Origin: Flavobacteriaceae bacterium
GTDB taxonomy: Bacteria > Bacteroidota > Bacteroidia > Flavobacteriales > Flavobacteriaceae
Direction: 5' to 3'
Length of the DNA stretch: 32,000 nt
Assembly (NCBI GenBank): GCA_965224465.1
Contig: OZ245049.1
Coordinates: forward strand, 2,520,001-2,552,000
Of the stretch, positions 23,992 to 31,358 are shown piece after piece. The notes under the pieces were generated by a model that had not been told where the DNA came from, did not search any database, and saw only the letters and a program-made list of their open reading frames with translations. A program made the translations under genes and the position numbers. Each line of letters begins with the position of its first letter. Positions within the stretch are counted from its first letter, which is position 1.

Positions 23992-26361
23992 TCAATTATT
24001 ACTTTTAATACGGTCTTGTTCGTCTTTAGATGAATTTGACCGCTCTTTTTCTTTACTATATTTTGAACCAAAATTGTAAGAAACTTGTAAATACACATTT
24101 TGACGCGACCAATCACTAATTATGTCAGCATCTATATTATTATATTTAATACTCCCCTTAAACTTTCTTTTTAGAATTTCTCCTACCCCTAAATTTACTT
24201 TCATTTTATCATTCATAAACTTTTTACTCAACCCAAAACTTATTCCCGCCAACCAATCATGCTCTATAAGCCCCTGTAAACCTCCTGTTGAATAATATCC
24301 TGTCATTTCAGAATTAATACCCCAAGGAAATTTGTATTCTAAATTTGTATACCAAGTCAAACTCCATTTATCGATATCAAAATTTGGCTGTAGATTTTGA
24401 GATTTGTACCTGTTATAGTTAACTATAAACCCAGTATAACCTTCTAGTTCACTCACGAAATTTATGGGGGCAAACGCTTTAAAATTCCAATTTTCTCTTT
24501 TTGAAATATTAATTGTCGAACGTGATGTTTGGGCTGAAACATTATTTTGTGTAACAATTTCAAATAAAGCATCTGACGTATCTTTGTAACCAATTGAGAA
24601 AAAAGGTTGATCATTATATGTCATATTAAATTGAAAACTATTTGTAAATGCAGGTTTTAAATTCGGGTTTCCTTCTTCAAAAGTATAGGGGTCATAATAA
24701 TAAACAAAGGAATTTAAAGAGCTATACGAAGGTCTTTGTATACGATAACTATACGACAGGTTTACTCCAAAAGTTTTAGATAACTTTCTTCCAATATTAG
24801 CACTAGGAAAAAATTTTGATATCTTACGTTTTTTAACCTCAGATGTATTTGTAGACTTTCCTATCGTCTCACTTTCTTCCCATCTCAGTCCTCCAGAAAA
24901 AGACCATTCATCCATAATAGAAGTGAATTTAGTATATATAGCACTAATATCTTCGTCAATTAAAAAACGATTGCTTTGAGTATCATTTAGGATAAAATTA
25001 CCACTGTTATTTTGCACAAACGACTGTAGGTTACTATCTGTATTTATTTTCGAGAATTTCGAACCAAACATCCAATTAAAATTATCGTTAAAAGTATGTT
25101 TGTAATCCAATTTATAAGTTAAAATATGATATGCACCATTTTGTAAATAACGTTGATTGCTATAATCTATAGTGCTTAACTCTCTTTTAAATAAATCATT
25201 TGTATTATCGTTGTTATAATCTATATAATTTACATCAAAAACAACTTTCTCTTTACCGTTATCAAACTTATAAAAAGGATTTATATTAAAAGTTACTCTC
25301 TCTTTATCAAAATCACTTTCTGTAAATAATGAATTAGATGAACTATCTCCTAATATTATAGTGCTATTAGAAGTTACCCTGTCCGAGTCTGTAAAAATCC
25401 TACTTGTACTTACTCCTACACTATGTTCATTGTTAATATAATAATCTAACGCTCCACTCAACCTAAATGTTTTAGGGTGAAAAGGTGAAATTGAAGCTTG
25501 ACTATACAAGAGTTCATTAACTTTACGATTGATAAATAAATCTTCTCTCCATGCAGATTTTTTATATCCTGTACTTACCTGCCAATTTAATTTGTTTTTA
25601 TAACTCGCAATAGAAAAGCTCGTTCCATATTCAAATTCATTGTCATACCCCGTATTTAGTTTAATGCTTCCGTTTGTACCAAGTTTTACATTTTTTTTTA
25701 AAATGATATTAATAATTGCACCTGAACCTTCGGCGTCAAACTCAGCACCAGGCTGTTGAATAAGCTCTACTTTAGCAATATTATCTGCAGGTAAATCGCG
25801 TAACAACGTATCTGTATCCATATAATTTGTCGTCTTCCCGTTAATGAGAATTCTTACACCTTGTTGCCCCGCGTAACTAATATTCCCATTTGTAACAATA
25901 ATTCCTGGTATTTTTTTCATAACATCCTGTAAGTTAGAGTTCATCATTTCAGAGTTTTCAAGGTTAATGATCAACTTTTCTGCTGTTTGGCGAATTACAG
26001 GCCTCGTACTTTTTATAACAACTTCATTTAAAGTTTGAGACTCTTCCTTTAAGGTAAAATTTAATTTAATTTCCTTATTTTTTTCGGATAACATGAAAGG
26101 CTTCGATTTCTGAATTTCAAAACCAAGTACTGACACTACTATTCGATAAGATCCATCTGAAATATTTTCAAAGGCATAATACCCAATATCATTACTACTT
26201 GTTCCTTTGACTACTTTATTGTTTAATTTATACAATACAATATTAGAAAAAGGTAATGATTCACCCGATTGTTCAATGATAACTCCAGAAATCCTATTTT
26301 GAGAAAAAACAAAATTCATATTGAATATAAAACATATAATAATTATTAATTTAATTTTCAT
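23992..26361 (-). CDS. Outer-membrane beta-barrel protein with carboxypeptidase-regulatory-like and plug-like N-terminal domains (TonB-dependent-receptor-like)
   Basis: Signal peptide (MKIKLIIIICFIFNMNFVFSQ), a CarbopepD_reg-like domain (ISGVIIE...GYYAFENISDGSYRIVVSVLGFE), a plug-like segment (DVMKKIPGIIV...GVRILINGK), then a long region of beta-strand periodicity. It is the last gene of the operon. Confidence 0.8.
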   Translation of the reverse strand: MKIKLIIIICFIFNMNFVFSQNRISGVIIEQSGESLPFSNIVLYKLNNKVVKGTSSNDIGYYAFENISDGSYRIVVSVLGFEIQKSKPFMLSEKNKEIKLNFTLKEESQTLNEVVIKSTRPVIRQTAEKLIINLENSEMMNSNLQDVMKKIPGIIVTNGNISYAGQQGVRILINGKTTNYMDTDTLLRDLPADNIAKVELIQQPGAEFDAEGSGAIINIILKKNVKLGTNGSIKLNTGYDNEFEYGTSFSIASYKNKLNWQVSTGYKKSAWREDLFINRKVNELLYSQASISPFHPKTFRLSGALDYYINNEHSVGVSTSRIFTDSDRVTSNSTIILGDSSSNSLFTESDFDKERVTFNINPFYKFDNGKEKVVFDVNYIDYNNDNTNDLFKRELSTIDYSNQRYLQNGAYHILTYKLDYKHTFNDNFNWMFGSKFSKINTDSNLQSFVQNNSGNFILNDTQSNRFLIDEDISAIYTKFTSIMDEWSFSGGLRWEESETIGKSTNTSEVKKRKISKFFPSANIGRKLSKTFGVNLSYSYRIQRPSYSSLNSFVYYYDPYTFEEGNPNLKPAFTNSFQFNMTYNDQPFFSIGYKDTSDALFEIVTQNNVSAQTSRSTINISKRENWNFKAFAPINFVSELEGYTGFIVNYNRYKSQNLQPNFDIDKWSLTWYTNLEYKFPWGINSEMTGYYSTGGLQGLIEHDWLAGISFGLSKKFMNDKMKVNLGVGEILKRKFKGSIKYNNIDADIISDWSRQNVYLQVSYNFGSKYSKEKERSNSSKDEQDRIKSNN

Positions 26362-26385: not shown

Positions 26386-26715
26386 TTATTTAATTTGTTC
26401 AATTTCAGACTTAACTTTTTCAATTTCGTCATCATATCCTATATTACTTCTATAGATTAATTTAAAATGACTTTCTCTAAGGTATATTTTTAAAAAATAT
26501 CTCTCATTATTTTTTATATACTTTATTTTCCCATCTCCCAATTCATCAAAATCAGAAAAATTGGTTTTTAAAATTTTATGGATTTTAATAAAATCTTCTT
26601 TATTTATTGTAACAGAATAGATTGTCTCATATTTTGATTGCATTAAAACTTCATTTTTTGAGCTACAACTAGCAAAAAAAAAGAGGATACTACTGCAAAT
26701 AATTCTTATATTCAT
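26386..26715 (-). CDS. Small lipoprotein of unknown function (possible immunity or accessory factor)
   Basis: Signal peptide plus lipobox (ILFFFASCSS). 109 aa. 5 nt separate it from the ABC gene stop and 24 nt from the OM barrel start. Confidence 0.55.
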   Translation of the reverse strand: MNIRIICSSILFFFASCSSKNEVLMQSKYETIYSVTINKEDFIKIHKILKTNFSDFDELGDGKIKYIKNNERYFLKIYLRESHFKLIYRSNIGYDDEIEKVKSEIEQIK

Positions 26716-26720
26716 AATAT

Positions 26721-28910
26721 TTAAATATTTAATTGATTTTTCACTAATGTATAATAATGTTGTTTCTTATTTATTAATTCCAAGTGGGTTCCTCTTTCTA
26801 CAACAGTACCATTAGATAAAACAACTATTTGATCTGCATTTCGAACAGTACTTAATCTATGTGCTATTATTACAACCGTTTTGTCTTCAAATAATTTCTG
26901 TAAATTAGAATGTACTTCCATTTCATTAGTTGAATCAAGCGCTGAAGTAGCTTCATCAAGAAATATGTATTTTGGATTTTTATAAATAGCTCTTGCAATT
27001 AAGATCCGCTGTCTTTGCCCCCCCGACAAACCATTTCCTCCAGACCCAATCTTAGTAAGTTCCTTTAAAGGTAATGAATTAATAAAACTAAACAAATTAA
27101 CTGCTTTTAAGGCTTTAAATAATTTATCTTTATCAATTTTAATTTCACTCATCACGATGTTTCTTTGTATTGTATCATTAAAAATATAACCATCCTGCAT
27201 AACAACACCTGAATTTTCACGAATACTTTTAGCAGATAATTTTTTTATATCATCAGACCCGTAAAATATCTCACCGTCTATTGTATCGAAAAATTTAAGA
27301 AGTAATTTCATTAAAGTGGTTTTCCCACTACCACTATGCCCTACGATTGCAGTGATTTTTCCTTTTGGTATATTAATACTTACATTTTCTAAAATAAAAT
27401 TTTCAGACAATTGATTATATTTGAAATTTAGATTAATCAAATCTATATCTACTGGTCCATAGCTTGGTTCTAGCGTATTATTGATATTAAAATCCTCTTC
27501 GTCCTGAGAATACACCTCACTTAACCTGTCAAAGCTTAAGAGTGCATCTTGTTGTGACCTAAAGAAATCCAAAAGTTGATGTACGGGAGAATTCATTTGC
27601 CCAATAATAAAAGAAACACTGAGAAGCGCCCCCAAAGTCATGTGATTATTAATCACATAATAAGCTGCAAGAAAAGTAACTAAAATATTTTTCAATTGAT
27701 TAAAAAAAACAAAACCGACAGACTGAAACTGTTCGATTTTTAATGACATAATATTAACTTTTAAAAGCTTATTCTGAATATCAATCCATTCATTTTTTTT
27801 ATACTCTTCGTACTGATTCAATTTCATTTCTTTAATCCCATTATAAAACTCAAATATTGCTTCTTGACTTTCCGACCGAGCTTTGAATAGTTTGTAGTCA
27901 ACTAACTCTCTCTTTTTCAACCAAAAGACTGACCAAAATATAGAAACCATTGTTAAAACCGAGAATAACAAAAATAAATAAAAATCATAATATAACAAAA
28001 TCATTGAATACAACATCAAAGTAATAAAGGAAAAAAAAGTTAAAATACTTTCAGATGTTAAAAATTGTTCAATCTTGACATTATCTTGTATACGCTGATT
28101 AAAATCGCCTGAGTTTTTTGTGTCGAAAAAACTAATTGGTAAACTTAAAATTTTGTCTAGGTATGAATAGATGATGTTAACACTAAGTTTAGTCCCAATT
28201 ATTAAAGTAAACCAGTTTCTCAAAATATTTATACACATTATACCTATAAAAACAAATAACTGAGCTAAAACTATCAATCCTAATAAATTAATATTTTTTT
28301 TATTAACACCTCTATCAATTAATGCTTCAGTTAAAAAAGGTAAAGTTATATTTAAAACACTTCCCATAAAGAATAACCCAAAGAGTAAAATTATTTTTTT
28401 CTTAAAAGGACTAAGAAGCTCAATAATTGGTCTAATTCTTCTAACAAAACTATTTTTATTTTTATTTTCAGAAAACTTAAGAGTTGGACTCAAAAAAAGT
28501 GCTACTCCATAATTATCATCATTTAACCATAAATTACAGAAATCTTTCCTTGATAATTTAATTTTTCCATGTGCAGGATCTACAATTAGAAATTCTGTTT
28601 TATTTTTATTAATCGCTTCTAGAACCAAAAAATGATTCATATTCCAATATAAAATACATGGTTCCGTAAAATTTTCAATCAATTGCTCTATATTTAATTT
28701 TAAACAATGTGTTTTAAAACCAATTTTTTTAGCCGCATGTATTATCCCCAACATTGAGACCCCATCCTTTCCGATTTGACACAGTTCTCTCAAACTGTGT
28801 AATCTATAATTATTTCCGAAATAGTTCGTGACCATACTCAATGATGCAGGGCCACAATCCATTTGATCATGTTGTCTTACCAAGGTTATATTTTTTTTTC
28901 TTTTGAGCAT
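26721..28910 (-). CDS. Peptidase-C39-domain ABC transporter (double-glycine leader cleaving bacteriocin/lantibiotic exporter, LanT/SunT type)
   Basis: N-terminal C39 motifs with an intact catalytic Cys (QHDQMDCGPASL) and a His region (NHFLVLEA...VDPAHG). Six-TM domain. Walker A GHSGSGKTT, signature LSGGQRQR, Walker B IFLDEATSALD, H-loop IIAHRLS. Confidence 0.93.
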   Translation of the reverse strand: MLKRKKNITLVRQHDQMDCGPASLSMVTNYFGNNYRLHSLRELCQIGKDGVSMLGIIHAAKKIGFKTHCLKLNIEQLIENFTEPCILYWNMNHFLVLEAINKNKTEFLIVDPAHGKIKLSRKDFCNLWLNDDNYGVALFLSPTLKFSENKNKNSFVRRIRPIIELLSPFKKKIILLFGLFFMGSVLNITLPFLTEALIDRGVNKKNINLLGLIVLAQLFVFIGIMCINILRNWFTLIIGTKLSVNIIYSYLDKILSLPISFFDTKNSGDFNQRIQDNVKIEQFLTSESILTFFSFITLMLYSMILLYYDFYLFLLFSVLTMVSIFWSVFWLKKRELVDYKLFKARSESQEAIFEFYNGIKEMKLNQYEEYKKNEWIDIQNKLLKVNIMSLKIEQFQSVGFVFFNQLKNILVTFLAAYYVINNHMTLGALLSVSFIIGQMNSPVHQLLDFFRSQQDALLSFDRLSEVYSQDEEDFNINNTLEPSYGPVDIDLINLNFKYNQLSENFILENVSINIPKGKITAIVGHSGSGKTTLMKLLLKFFDTIDGEIFYGSDDIKKLSAKSIRENSGVVMQDGYIFNDTIQRNIVMSEIKIDKDKLFKALKAVNLFSFINSLPLKELTKIGSGGNGLSGGQRQRILIARAIYKNPKYIFLDEATSALDSTNEMEVHSNLQKLFEDKTVVIIAHRLSTVRNADQIVVLSNGTVVERGTHLELINKKQHYYTLVKNQLNI

Positions 28911-28912
28911 AA

Positions 28913-29407
28913 TTAAATTTGATCAAATTCACTAAAACAATATTCGTTAAAGCTATTTACAATTTGTTTATAAAAAATCGTTTTTTTTCGTATAATTAAA
29001 CACGGAATATCCTTTTTATATAACTCATAATTGGTCAGAATAACATGATCTTCGAAATTTGCTTTACAAATTCTATTCCACAAATTAACTCTAGTTTTCC
29101 CTCTTGTTTTTCTGAAATTTATAGAATTTTCCAATTGATTGTGAGTTTGTAAAAAAATCGCATCGTAATAACCAACAAGCTCTTTCATAAAAATGATTAT
29201 TGTTCTTATAACTTTATAATCTTTTGGTGGATTTTTAATTCCACATTTCAATGATAACTCTAAAATATTTTTGGTTCCCCCACATAAAGTATCATAACTA
29301 ACATCTGATTTACTAAGAATAAAGCAATATTTTATTCCGCTATCCGACACAAAATAGTAACTATTTAATCCTTGCTTTTTTATTTTATAAAATTTTGAAA
29401 TCTCCAT
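28913..29407 (-). CDS. Hypothetical 164-aa protein, translationally coupled within the RiPP operon
   Basis: The ATG at 29407 overlaps the upstream gene by 23 nt, and the stop lies 2 nt before the ABC start. I recognise no motif. There is no signal peptide or TM segment. Confidence 0.5.
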   Translation of the reverse strand: MEISKFYKIKKQGLNSYYFVSDSGIKYCFILSKSDVSYDTLCGGTKNILELSLKCGIKNPPKDYKVIRTIIIFMKELVGYYDAIFLQTHNQLENSINFRKTRGKTRVNLWNRICKANFEDHVILTNYELYKKDIPCLIIRKKTIFYKQIVNSFNEYCFSEFDQI

Positions 29408-30692
29408 TTTCGATTAATTCTAATTCATTAACAATAATACCTTTGTTGTTTATTAAAACCCTTAAAAAGTACATAATTACATCTTTCGGGAAATTATTAA
29501 ATTCTTTCAAAATGGATTTAACACTAACTTCTTTAGAATTATTAATCATTTTAATTATACCTATTAATTCAGGGAAATATTTAAAAGAAAGCCTCGTACC
29601 ACGAACGTACAGAATTAACCTATCCTCAACTTTCTCAACTTTTATCATATACAAATTATTTGATGTGATTATTTTACTTTCTAAATTAGGGAAATAATCT
29701 TTAGTACTATCCATTTTACCAAAATAACTCAAAGGTATACTCTGCCACCCCCCATTGCTTGTCAAACATTTTTTGTATTCATTATAAGTTTGTTTTAAAA
29801 AATCTTGTAGTGGTGATTTTAAAGCTTTCTCACTAACATTTAGTGTATTTATAAAATCAAAAAAAGTGTTTTCATTGTTGATATAATCTTTTTGACATGG
29901 AATTATACTTTGATCATTTTTAATAAATAAGTTCTTAATAGTATCTATCATTAATTTTGAGTAGTTATACTTTGTGGGGTTGTTAAACCAAAGGGTTACA
30001 CCAATAGAAAAGCTTTCTGAACATCCAACATGATGCTTATCCCATGGCATAGAATACAAATCCCCCCTACCAAATTCATGTTTTTCAGCATATTCCAACA
30101 ATGGTTCAATATTTCTATTATTTGAAAGCCCCTTACCAACTTTACTATATGTTTTTTCATCCCAAACATACATTTGTTTTTTTCCTGGCCCTAAATGGTA
30201 ATGTAGTACATTTTCTCCTCTATTATCTCTATGAATCCCAAGAGGGGTCCATCCATAATTACCTATGAAAGTAGTAAGTTCTATTCCCCAAGGAGGTATC
30301 CCAATAATATCAAATAATGGTTGTACTGTTTTCAATATATATCCCGCCAAAATTTCCGAATGTTTTTCTCCATAATTAGTTATTATACCAAAATTTTCAC
30401 CGAATACTCGTTCACAATATGATTGTATACCTTCATCGCTACTTAATTCATTTTTCTCAATTAATTTAATGATTTCTGAGTCACTCATTTCTATGCCGTC
30501 AACATATAACCTAAATCCATTACTTATATCTAGTCTATTTATTCTAGATTTAAGCATTTCAAGAACACCTTCATTTAATACATTCACTAAATCATTCGAC
30601 ATGCACCCCTCATAAACTTGTGTCTTTGTAAATGAAAAATTTTTCGCCATAAAAGACTTCCACCAATCGTGATTAAAGTTATTTGTTTTCAT
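29385..30692 (-). CDS. JmjC/cupin-4 (ribosomal-oxygenase-like) Fe(II)/2-oxoglutarate-dependent oxygenase
   Basis: HxD...H facial-triad arrangement in a cupin context: WTPLGIHRDNRGENVLHYHLGPGKKQMYVW, then GRGDLYSMPWDKHHVGCSESFSIGVTLWF. By recollection this parallels E. coli YcfD/RoxA: GVGPHLDQYDVFIIQGTGRRRWRVG ... PGDILYIPPGFPHEGYALENAMNYSVGFR. The N-terminal (DWWKSF..) and C-terminal extensions are also ROX-like. No alignment was computed. Confidence 0.6.
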   Translation of the reverse strand: MKTNNFNHDWWKSFMAKNFSFTKTQVYEGCMSNDLVNVLNEGVLEMLKSRINRLDISNGFRLYVDGIEMSDSEIIKLIEKNELSSDEGIQSYCERVFGENFGIITNYGEKHSEILAGYILKTVQPLFDIIGIPPWGIELTTFIGNYGWTPLGIHRDNRGENVLHYHLGPGKKQMYVWDEKTYSKVGKGLSNNRNIEPLLEYAEKHEFGRGDLYSMPWDKHHVGCSESFSIGVTLWFNNPTKYNYSKLMIDTIKNLFIKNDQSIIPCQKDYINNENTFFDFINTLNVSEKALKSPLQDFLKQTYNEYKKCLTSNGGWQSIPLSYFGKMDSTKDYFPNLESKIITSNNLYMIKVEKVEDRLILYVRGTRLSFKYFPELIGIIKMINNSKEVSVKSILKEFNNFPKDVIMYFLRVLINNKGIIVNELELIENGDFKIL

Positions 30693-31022
30693 TATTCCTC
30701 TAGTTTTGTTACTATCTCTAATAAAATACTTGTTCTATAAAAAAAATTAAATCTGTAATTTCTAACTGTGTATTTTTTTATTCTTTCTTAAAATCCTAAT
30801 TTTGTAATCTACCCAATAAAGTATCATTGTGGTAAGTGGGTAGTTTCATATAAAAAACGTCTATATTACTAACTATTGTTACTAAATCAACAAATCATAT
30901 CATTAAAACGTTTCACTAATATGTTTTGAGTGGAACGTGTAAATATTTTGGCTTTCAAATATGCATAAACACTGAATTAAGTAAAATGCTGTTATTTACT
31001 AATCTCTAAAATATTATTTATT

Positions 31023-31059
31023 GAAAAATGTAAGGATGTTTTACAGAAAACACCCTTAC
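31023..31059 (-). terminator. Intrinsic terminator/attenuator immediately downstream of the precursor peptide genes
   Basis: The minus-strand RNA would fold GUAAGGGUGUUUU-CUGU-AAAACAUCCUUAC (13-bp stem with one G-U pair), followed by AUUUUUC. It begins 21 nt after the stop of the second peptide gene. Confidence 0.5.
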
Positions 31060-31079
31060 GAGTAAATTAGAACATTATT

Positions 31080-31208
31080 CTAGCTTTCTACTTTCACTTC
31101 CTTTTTCTTTTCTTTCTTTGGTCTCTCATGCCCCCCTAATAAGGTTTGACTTTCAAGTGCCGATAATTCCTCAATATCAAGAAATTTTTTTGGATTTAAT
31201 TTTTTCAT
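31080..31208 (-). CDS. RiPP precursor peptide 2 (42 aa), double-glycine leader
   Basis: Hand-translated and below the ORF-track size cutoff: MKKLNPKKFLDIEELSALESQTLLGG|HERPKKEKKKEVKVES. It is a paralogue of the adjacent peptide. The leader fits the LSxxELxxIxGG-type consensus. Confidence 0.75.
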   Translation of the reverse strand: MKKLNPKKFLDIEELSALESQTLLGGHERPKKEKKKEVKVES

Positions 31209-31232: not shown

Positions 31233-31358
31233 TTACTTTGTTTCAACTTTTTTCTCTTTCTTTTTATCTGGTCTTTCGTGCCCTCCCTTTAAGGTTTGGC
31301 TTTCTAAAGCTGATAATTCTTGAGTATCTAAGAATTTTTCTGGTTTTGAATTTTTCAT
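31233..31358 (-). CDS. RiPP precursor peptide 1 (41 aa), double-glycine leader
   Basis: Hand-translated: MKNSKPEKFLDTQELSALESQTLKGG|HERPDKKKEKKVETK. Across the 16 shared codons ELSALESQTL and GGHERP the two genes differ at 7 positions, all synonymous. Confidence 0.75.
   Translation of the reverse strand: MKNSKPEKFLDTQELSALESQTLKGGHERPDKKKEKKVETK

Follow-up and report, generated by a model that had tools for sequence, protein, structure and literature searches.

Among the ribosomal oxygenases (ROX), Escherichia coli RoxA (also called YcfD) and R. marinus YcfD are arginine 3-hydroxylases of uL16 (PDB 4ccl, 4liv, 4csw), and human NO66 and MINA53 are ribosomal histidine hydroxylases (PDB 4ccm, 4bxf, 2xdv). 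The residues that these enzymes modify are uL16 Arg81, uL2 His216 and uL15 His39. Here we describe an enzyme of ROX architecture encoded in a 32,000-nucleotide stretch of a Flavobacteriaceae genome (contig OZ245049.1 of assembly GCA_965224465.1, positions 2,520,001 to 2,552,000), to which we refer as the window. Its gene lies at 29385..30692 of the window (stop codon included) on the minus strand, starts with ATG and encodes 435 amino acids. Most likely, the product is a cytoplasmic ROX-architecture oxygenase that was recruited as the modifying enzyme of a RiPP-type peptide system (RiPPs are peptides made ribosomally and then modified post-translationally).

The JmjC/PF08007 hydroxylases known from RiPP biosynthesis come from a handful of pathways, in each of which one defined residue is tailored. 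PhaI, a PF08007 enzyme of the phaeornamide/selidamide pathway described in 2022, is an ornithine gamma-hydroxylase that acts on lysine in the R2K variant (PMC8784127). BipG/BpmG and PbsQ, described in 2025, are ornithine gamma-hydroxylases of the biphenomycins (PMC12707348, PMC12257519), and the JmjC enzyme CzlI (2024) hydroxylates phenylalanine in curacozole (PMC11575548). These examples overtake the premise of an earlier note on this DNA, whose author was aware of no ROX/cupin-4-type oxygenase characterised in a RiPP pathway. A 2025 survey further reported that folds resembling RiPP recognition elements (RREs) occur in fusion with JmjC domains of PF08007 and that their bacterial homologues stand in RiPP-like contexts (PMC12710340).

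Comparison with described hydroxylases

The window enzyme shares with YcfD/RoxA the order of its domains (JmjC barrel, helical region, winged helix), and its metal-binding triad and basic 2-oxoglutarate (2OG)-binding residue align with those of that enzyme. However, it is only ~14% identical to YcfD/RoxA, is ~60 residues longer and carries an additional invariant H164-x-H166 motif. The genes also differ in their setting, with RoxA encoded by a stand-alone housekeeping gene and the window enzyme by a gene in a peptide-export operon, where its likely substrate is a small leader-bearing peptide rather than a ribosomal protein. NO66 and MINA53 likewise match the window enzyme structurally over its full length (E about 1e-13) and bind 2OG through a lysine rather than an arginine, as K172 is predicted to do here. 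In contrast to the window enzyme, they are eukaryotic nucleolar proteins with N-terminal extensions that act on folded ribosomal proteins, and their identity to it is 9-14%.

Among the RiPP enzymes, PhaI is similar in being a PF08007-type Fe/2OG hydroxylase that is encoded together with a precursor with a Gly-Gly leader and a peptidase-containing exporter. Judged by its published description, PhaI is set apart by a long leader of the nitrile hydratase-like (NHLP) type and by an arginase, a LanM and a GNAT in its cluster, whereas the window oxygenase is the sole recognisable modifier, serves short leaders and falls below the PF08007 threshold. BipG/BpmG, PbsQ and CzlI are also JmjC/cupin Fe/2OG hydroxylases, with activity on RiPP precursors shown biochemically. 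As described, they differ from the window enzyme in belonging to Actinomycetota or Bacillota, in working within multi-enzyme tailoring pathways and in acting on a defined residue of a core motif that is conserved. CzlI is similar to YxbC, whose match to the window protein is limited to the barrel.

Fold, active site and family of the oxygenase

An AlphaFold model of the oxygenase, built on the alignment of its homologues (predicted local distance difference test (pLDDT) 90.6, predicted template modelling score (pTM) 0.88), has a beta-barrel core, and its top matches in the PDB are JmjC oxygenases. The best Foldseek match is E. coli YcfD/RoxA (E 6e-15, all 435 residues covered), followed by R. 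marinus YcfD, NO66 and MINA53; the top matches span E values of 6e-15 to 1e-12 over ~430-480 columns, while YxbC and FIH come further down the list and match the barrel alone. The full-length alignments to 4ccl, 4csw, 4ccm and 4bxf comprise the three domains of the ROX architecture (JmjC, helical and C-terminal winged helix). The earlier note had compared the order of elements to that of YcfD, NO66 and MINA53, and these are the top-ranking matches. We conclude that the protein belongs to the 2OG-oxygenase cupins and is built like the ROX enzymes. We nevertheless classify it as ROX-like in architecture and not as a ribosomal oxygenase, since its precursor genes and exporter context favour a peptide substrate.

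The N-terminal JmjC/double-stranded beta-helix domain, supported by invariant columns, the RoxA alignment and the model, spans approximately residues 1-240 (29973..30692, minus strand). It is followed on the same strand by a central helical region of approximately residues 241-320 (29733..29972), which takes the position of the ROX dimerisation domain in the structural alignment with YcfD and NO66. The helices of this region in the model comprise residues 241-256, 275-282, 288-292 and 295-312, and the region ends in a conserved SNGGW motif in which S312 is invariant and N313 and G315 are conserved in at least 90% of sequences. The C-terminal winged helix, residues 325-435, is encoded at 29388..29720 (minus strand).

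Six residues (H154, D156, H164, H166, K172 and H221) never vary across 36 aligned homologues with identities down to 24%, and they fall within the signature GNYGWTPLGIHxDxxGENVxHFHLGPGxKxMY. The codons were checked directly on the minus strand: H154-R-D156 lies at 30225-30233, H164 to K172 at 30177-30203 (K172 itself at 30177-30179) and H220-H221 at 30030-30035 (H221 at 30030-30032). The cupin HxD...H triad claimed in the earlier note is thus H154/D156/H221 and, being kept together with K172 in all 36 homologues, is no chance occurrence of the pattern. When the family profile is aligned with E. coli RoxA (MG1655 sequence), H154, D156, K172 and H221 fall on H125, D127, R140 and H187, with sequence similarity limited to the ligand region. 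We take R140 to be the residue of RoxA that binds 2OG, and the basic residue that would bind the 2OG C5-carboxylate in the window enzyme is the aligned, invariant K172. The invariant H164-Y-H166 (30195-30203), 8-10 residues past the HxD motif, is a three-residue insertion relative to E. coli RoxA; a second metal site or a substrate contact may be its role.

The profile searches proposed in the earlier note (Cupin_4 and Cupin_8) gave a divided result. The window oxygenase has no match and does not reach the gathering threshold of PF08007 (JmjC_2, formerly Cupin_4; 22 bits), but 18 of the 36 homologues have sub-threshold PF08007 matches (best E 5.7e-4) and 8 of the 36 match Cupin_8. One of ten distant representatives scanned, P0232, reaches the PF08007 cut-off at 22.1 bits. 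A word-indexed search retrieved homologues in 114 clusters, and an exhaustive profile search of clusters at 50% identity retrieved 1257 at E<=1e-3, 302 of them at E<=1e-30, mostly from Bacteroidota and additionally from Chromobacterium and other Pseudomonadota. A search for clade-specific specificity residues yielded six columns only, none of them interpretable without structural coordinates.

Precursor peptides and conserved gene neighbourhood

Upstream of the oxygenase gene, on the same strand, are two small genes whose products have a leader ending in Gly-Gly. Precursor A (31233..31358, 41 amino acids; leader MKNSKPEKFLDTQELSALESQTLKGG, core HERPDKKKEKKVETK) fits the leader consensus of the family, and precursor B (31080..31208, 42 amino acids; leader MKKLNPKKFLDIEELSALESQTLLGG, core HERPKKEKKKEVKVES) resembles precursor A in its DNA. 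Including the upstream flank, the two genes have a mean column identity of 81%, consistent with a tandem duplication. Both cores open with HERP and continue with a sequence rich in lysine and glutamate.

We scanned related loci, taking one genome per species, and obtained 78 loci; the counts given here refer to these and the window, 79 loci in total. Flavobacteriia, Chitinophagia, Cytophagia and Sphingobacteriia account for most of them; others are from Chromobacterium, Vitreoscilla and Massilia, and one is from a Coxiellaceae metagenome-assembled genome. When the open reading frames (ORFs) of these loci were clustered, the oxygenase was found in 77, a peptidase-C39-containing ATP-binding cassette transporter (PCAT) in 62, an outer-membrane barrel in 46 and any other family in at most 14. 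Small ORFs with a common leader lie on the same strand in 60 of the 79 loci. The RiPP-type arrangement found in the window, in which precursors with Gly-Gly leaders, the oxygenase and a C39 transporter share one strand, is kept in most of the 78 loci. The link between oxygenase and precursors is therefore strongly supported by conserved gene neighbourhood.

Leaders and cores differ in their conservation. The leaders follow the consensus K-F-N-P-K-E-F-L-G-A-K-V-L-S-P-L-E-Q-E-x-L-x-G-G, with high conservation at positions -18/-17 (F-L), -12, -11, -9 and -8. F-18 and L-17 are near-invariant and sit upstream of the zone that is usually recognised by C39 peptidases. In the cores, on the other hand, no position is conserved (all <= about 1.5 bits). 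Where the enzymes are 62-71% identical to that of the window, the cores (e.g., NAETDVKVEKKKEKKQE) lack HERP and begin with NAETD, AAATD, GVDGE or SSMVE, yet they share with the window the block ..(D/E)V(K/E)VEKKKEKK.., seen in the window clade as ..DVKVEKKKEKK... In more distant clades the cores consist of runs of 7-22 Q, of (VK)n, (VT)n or (KE)n, or of mixtures of V, Q and R, and (HD)n cores occur in Chromobacterium and some Bacteroidota. The enzyme clades of a neighbour-joining tree follow core composition (polyQ, H/D, K/E, VK/VT and VQR).

Among the repeats seen in the cores are VKVKVKVKIK, KEKEKEKEKEK, HHHDHDHDHDH, VTVTVKETVTE and CKCKCKCK, and alternating i/i+2 patterns are common. Possibilities for the role of such low-complexity cores are metal binding, signalling and self-assembly. 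In most cases the precursor ORFs precede the oxygenase by ~100-1500 bp (for example, L023:5760-5906, L047:5320-5490, L056:5685-5915 and L035:5294-5449, where L numbers designate related loci).

Putative leader binding by the winged helix

When residues 325-435 were modelled alone, with the full-length homologues as alignment, the domain was predicted at pLDDT 85 with the topology strand-strand-strand-helix-helix-helix; in the full-length model, the C-terminal domain has four beta-strands followed by three helices. The best Foldseek match of the isolated domain is the winged helix of MINA53. The RREs of MadB, TigE, McbB, ThcOx, TbiB1, LynD, MccB and PbtF are interspersed in the same ranking among the NO66 and R. 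marinus YcfD winged helices, and the matched RRE structures include ones with bound leader or substrate (MadB 9g05, TbiB1 5v1v, LynD 4v1u, McbB 6gri). The predicted domain has the topology of PqqD-like RREs such as those of TbiB1, LynD, McbB, MadB, MccB and PbtF, but it lacks sequence similarity to them and matches them with Foldseek E values of only 0.01-0.3. Taken together, the conserved leader, the variable cores and the RRE-like domain support leader-guided recognition, albeit short of proof.

Proposed activity and its alternatives

We think it reasonably probable that the enzyme is a leader-guided Fe/2OG hydroxylase that acts on the core, in the window most likely on lysine, before Gly-Gly cleavage and export. 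In the proposed sequence of events, the winged helix would dock the conserved leader (..K-x-F-L....L-S-x-L-E....G-G) of both upstream precursors, and the tethered, extended core would thread into the JmjC site, where H154, D156 and H221 would hold the iron and K172 the C5-carboxylate of 2OG. Fe(IV)-oxo chemistry would then hydroxylate one or more side-chain C-H bonds, the likeliest targets in the window being the lysines of the K/E block (..KKEKKKE..) and the residues of HERP being less likely ones. Subsequently, the C39 transporter would cut the leader after Gly-Gly and export the peptide, and the outer-membrane barrel would serve its passage across, or its re-uptake through, the outer membrane. 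Hydroxylation is the preferred reaction because the characterised ROX and RiPP JmjC enzymes are hydroxylases, Asp156 is invariant and the operon has no methyltransferase. Lysine is the favoured target because the K/E block is common to the cores of orthologous systems and PhaI accepts ornithine and lysine.

It should be noted that several observations weigh against this proposal. The oxygenase matches no Pfam family at E<=1 and no NCBIfam family at E<=10, phmmer and profile hmmsearch against PDB sequences returned only noise and no PDB relative, and hhalign matches it to RoxA only weakly (E 1.1e-3, probability 20%). The Foldseek E values of the C-terminal domain are likewise weak (0.008-0.3, none <=1e-3), with probabilities mostly >0.9, and the modelled RRE-like fold is equally that of the ordinary ROX winged helix, so that it does not demonstrate leader binding. 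The leader statistics come from ORFs that were picked by the leader pattern, which inflates the apparent conservation, and the way in which core type follows enzyme clade could stem from clusters being inherited as a whole instead of from specificity. As for the reaction itself, the expected +16 Da product is extrapolated from the behaviour of the family and not from observed chemistry. The cores of the family (Q, V, T, K, E, H, D) are too varied for one target residue, and the assignment of lysine, which draws solely on conservation within one clade, is the weakest step.

The earlier note had looked for the target (His, Arg, Lys or Pro) in the conserved HERP start of both cores and the lysine-rich sequence after it. 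An enzyme that recognises the N-terminal HERP and hydroxylates its His, Arg or Pro would act much as YcfD does on arginine or NO66 and MINA53 do on histidine, the nearest structural relatives, and both window cores do begin with HERP. This start is nonetheless peculiar to the window: it occurs in none of the 78 other distinct precursors from related loci, near-orthologous loci with enzymes 62-71% identical keep the K/E block behind the different core starts given above, and the distant clades have unrelated repeats. Moreover, the precursor genes arose by recent duplication, and the HERP that both encode may be no more than a sign of common ancestry. With HERP restricted to the window and the cores so variable, His, Arg and Pro are not conserved substrate features, while lysine is conserved within the clade, and we regard modification of HERP as unlikely. 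Somewhat less likely again is that the enzyme acts on the precursors through other chemistry, such as desaturation, oxidative cross-linking or cleavage, epimerisation or demethylation. Many reaction outcomes are established for 2OG oxygenases and JmjC enzymes, and the invariant H164-x-H166 beside the triad has no counterpart in RoxA. However, the characterised PF08007/ROX enzymes and known RiPP JmjC enzymes are all hydroxylases. A demethylase was rejected, as the operon holds no methyltransferase to furnish its substrate, and a halogenase-type site is ruled out by the invariant Asp156.

The ribosomal oxygenases being the best structural matches, one could also envisage a housekeeping hydroxylase of a ribosomal or other cellular protein that merely adjoins a bacteriocin export operon. 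We consider this very improbable, given that the association with PCAT and leader-bearing precursors extends across Flavobacteriia, Chitinophagia, Cytophagia, Sphingobacteriia and Chromobacterium, that 23 loci have two or three tandem paralogues, that the gene is translationally coupled to downstream operon genes in the window and that only the ligand region resembles RoxA in sequence. Identity as a housekeeping RoxA orthologue was rejected on the conserved operon context and the tandem paralogues. It seems just as improbable that the protein, while keeping the JmjC fold, does no catalysis and serves as a leader-binding chaperone or an immunity factor. The RRE-like C-terminal domain would suit such a role, an indirect argument in its favour, but the Fe/2OG ligands are invariant in 36 sequences down to 24% identity, and catalysis is therefore probably retained. 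Leader-guided hydroxylation of the core thus remains the reading that we favour.

Significance

A full-text literature search, which did not cover subscription-only papers, returned no description of this oxygenase family or system. Compared with the known RiPP JmjC enzymes, the family is new in lying below detection by curated profile libraries and in having the full ROX architecture with an RRE-like winged helix. New as well are the oxygenase as the sole recognisable modifier, the short Gly-Gly leaders, the hypervariable repeat cores and the conserved TonB-type outer-membrane partner. Here, a ROX-architecture enzyme with a fused recognition domain appears to be the sole, class-defining modifier, and core composition changes wholly between clades.

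More tentatively, and as a possibility to which we give less credence than to the activity proposed for the window, we speculate that these loci represent a large RiPP class in which a ROX-type enzyme reads the conserved leader through an RRE of its own and hydroxylates, perhaps repeatedly, cores of hypervariable, low-complexity sequence. Its clades and tandem paralogues would be specialised by residue type, and poly-hydroxylated repeat peptides would be exported by the PCAT and handled by a dedicated TonB-type barrel. If so, the products could be metal chelators (with beta-hydroxy-His/Asp in the H/D clade), signals or self-assembling peptides, and not bacteriocins of the classical kind. If the proposed role of the enzyme is confirmed, the family would offer a leader-guided, residue-flexible peptide hydroxylase for engineering and an evolutionary link between the winged helix of ribosomal oxygenases and the recognition elements of RiPPs, and Bacteroidota would hold a large group of peptide products unlabelled by Pfam and NCBIfam annotation.

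Gene organization in the window and in related loci

The 435-residue ORF to which the earlier note, without naming a strand, had drawn attention is real and runs on the minus strand; the plus-strand translation of 29385..30692 is stop-ridden. All the motifs it had quoted (GIHRDN, VLHYHLGPGKKQMYVW, GDLYSMPWDKHHVG and SIGVTLWF) are present in the ORF, and the gene does open an operon, as it had proposed, being the first of a tightly packed minus-strand run. The oxygenase is followed there by a 164-amino-acid ORF, the C39 exporter, a 109-amino-acid lipoprotein and an outer-membrane barrel. The start of the 164-amino-acid gene (28913..29407) overlaps the oxygenase stop by 23 nt, coupling the two translationally, and a gap of 2 nt separates it from the PCAT gene (26721..28910; Pfam Peptidase_C39 3.8e-35, ABC_membrane 2.4e-26, ABC_tran 2.1e-29). 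The predicted lipoprotein (26386..26715), with the N-terminus ..FFFASCSS, has homologues only in L001-L009, and the last gene (23992..26361) encodes a 789-amino-acid, TonB-dependent-receptor-like barrel (OMP_b-brl_3 3.1e-81, CarbopepD_reg_2 2.5e-13, Plug 3.8e-5). A single-stranded DNA-binding protein and an HNH endonuclease are encoded beyond 23992, and thus the peptide cluster ends there.

The spacer between the precursors and the oxygenase (30693-31079) comprises ~390 bp of AT-rich, non-coding DNA. It contains, right after precursor B, a terminator-like hairpin with a 13-pair stem and a T-run (31030..31059, minus strand; consensus scan), which leaves ~340 bp after the hairpin. Terminator-like sites in the region are no commoner than in shuffled sequences, and the hairpin is a pattern match only. 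The promoter scan gave fewer matches than in shuffles and is hence uninformative, and an Rfam scan of the window, spacer included, found no match. The hairpin may reduce the read-through that reaches the enzyme and export genes, and the spacer is probably a region of attenuation or of a secondary promoter.

The 164-amino-acid protein has no Pfam, NCBIfam or PDB match, and a homologue search returned itself alone. A profile of seven sequences gave nothing against PDB and Pfam but one weak DUF6169 match, contributed by one homologue. Of the 79 loci, no more than 11 encode the protein (the window, those of the K/E-core clade, and L020); together with the lipoprotein it is largely confined to the clade nearest the window. 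The barrel, with its CarboxypepD_reg, Plug and OMP_b-brl_3 domains, is conserved with the PCAT in Bacteroidota (the window and 45 related loci). Among the clustered ORFs, HlyD homologues occur only in Chromobacterium loci, and no HlyD-type adaptor accompanies the PCAT and barrel in Bacteroidota loci. The barrel could either export or re-import the peptide.

ROX enzymes are dimers. The tandem oxygenase paralogues, in two to three copies, are found in L019, L028/L029 (three copies), L033-L037, L045, L048, L051, L052, L054, L055, L061, L063, L065, L068, L070-L072, L076 and L077, and they tend to accompany cores that mix several residue types. They could reflect division of labour or heterodimers, and may split the work on differing residues.

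Other genes accompany particular clades. An accessory protein of ~124 amino acids with no Pfam match adjoins the oxygenase in the polyQ-core clade only (L032, L039, L042, L044, L046, L047 (5573-5965), L050, L053, L067 and L074), and in several copies a Pro/Thr-rich stretch comes after an N-terminus that resembles a signal peptide. In 12-14 loci (L001-L009, L013-L017, L025; e.g., L002:2903-5307), a ThiF-family protein, a LuxR/GerE-type regulator and an unannotated 227-amino-acid protein precede the precursors. The window has no trace of this module, and its last 640 bp upstream of precursor A are dissimilar. In Chromobacterium loci, a second, unrelated precursor with a Gly-Gly leader (…VSGG followed by EMEEDPTQCDSGYVRCDKGFSG) lies just downstream of the oxygenases (L048:7334-9079, L054:7334-9081, L059:8694-8867), and a radical-SAM/SPASM-like ORF comes after it in L048 and L054, so that two RiPP systems appear to be nested there. 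Lastly, L002, L003, L004, L005 and L009 have the same match coordinates, identities and precursor sequences despite different genus labels (Kriegella, Allomuricauda, Cyclobacterium, Flagellimonas and unclassified Flavobacteriales), which suggests either one organism binned under several names or a very recent transfer of the cluster.

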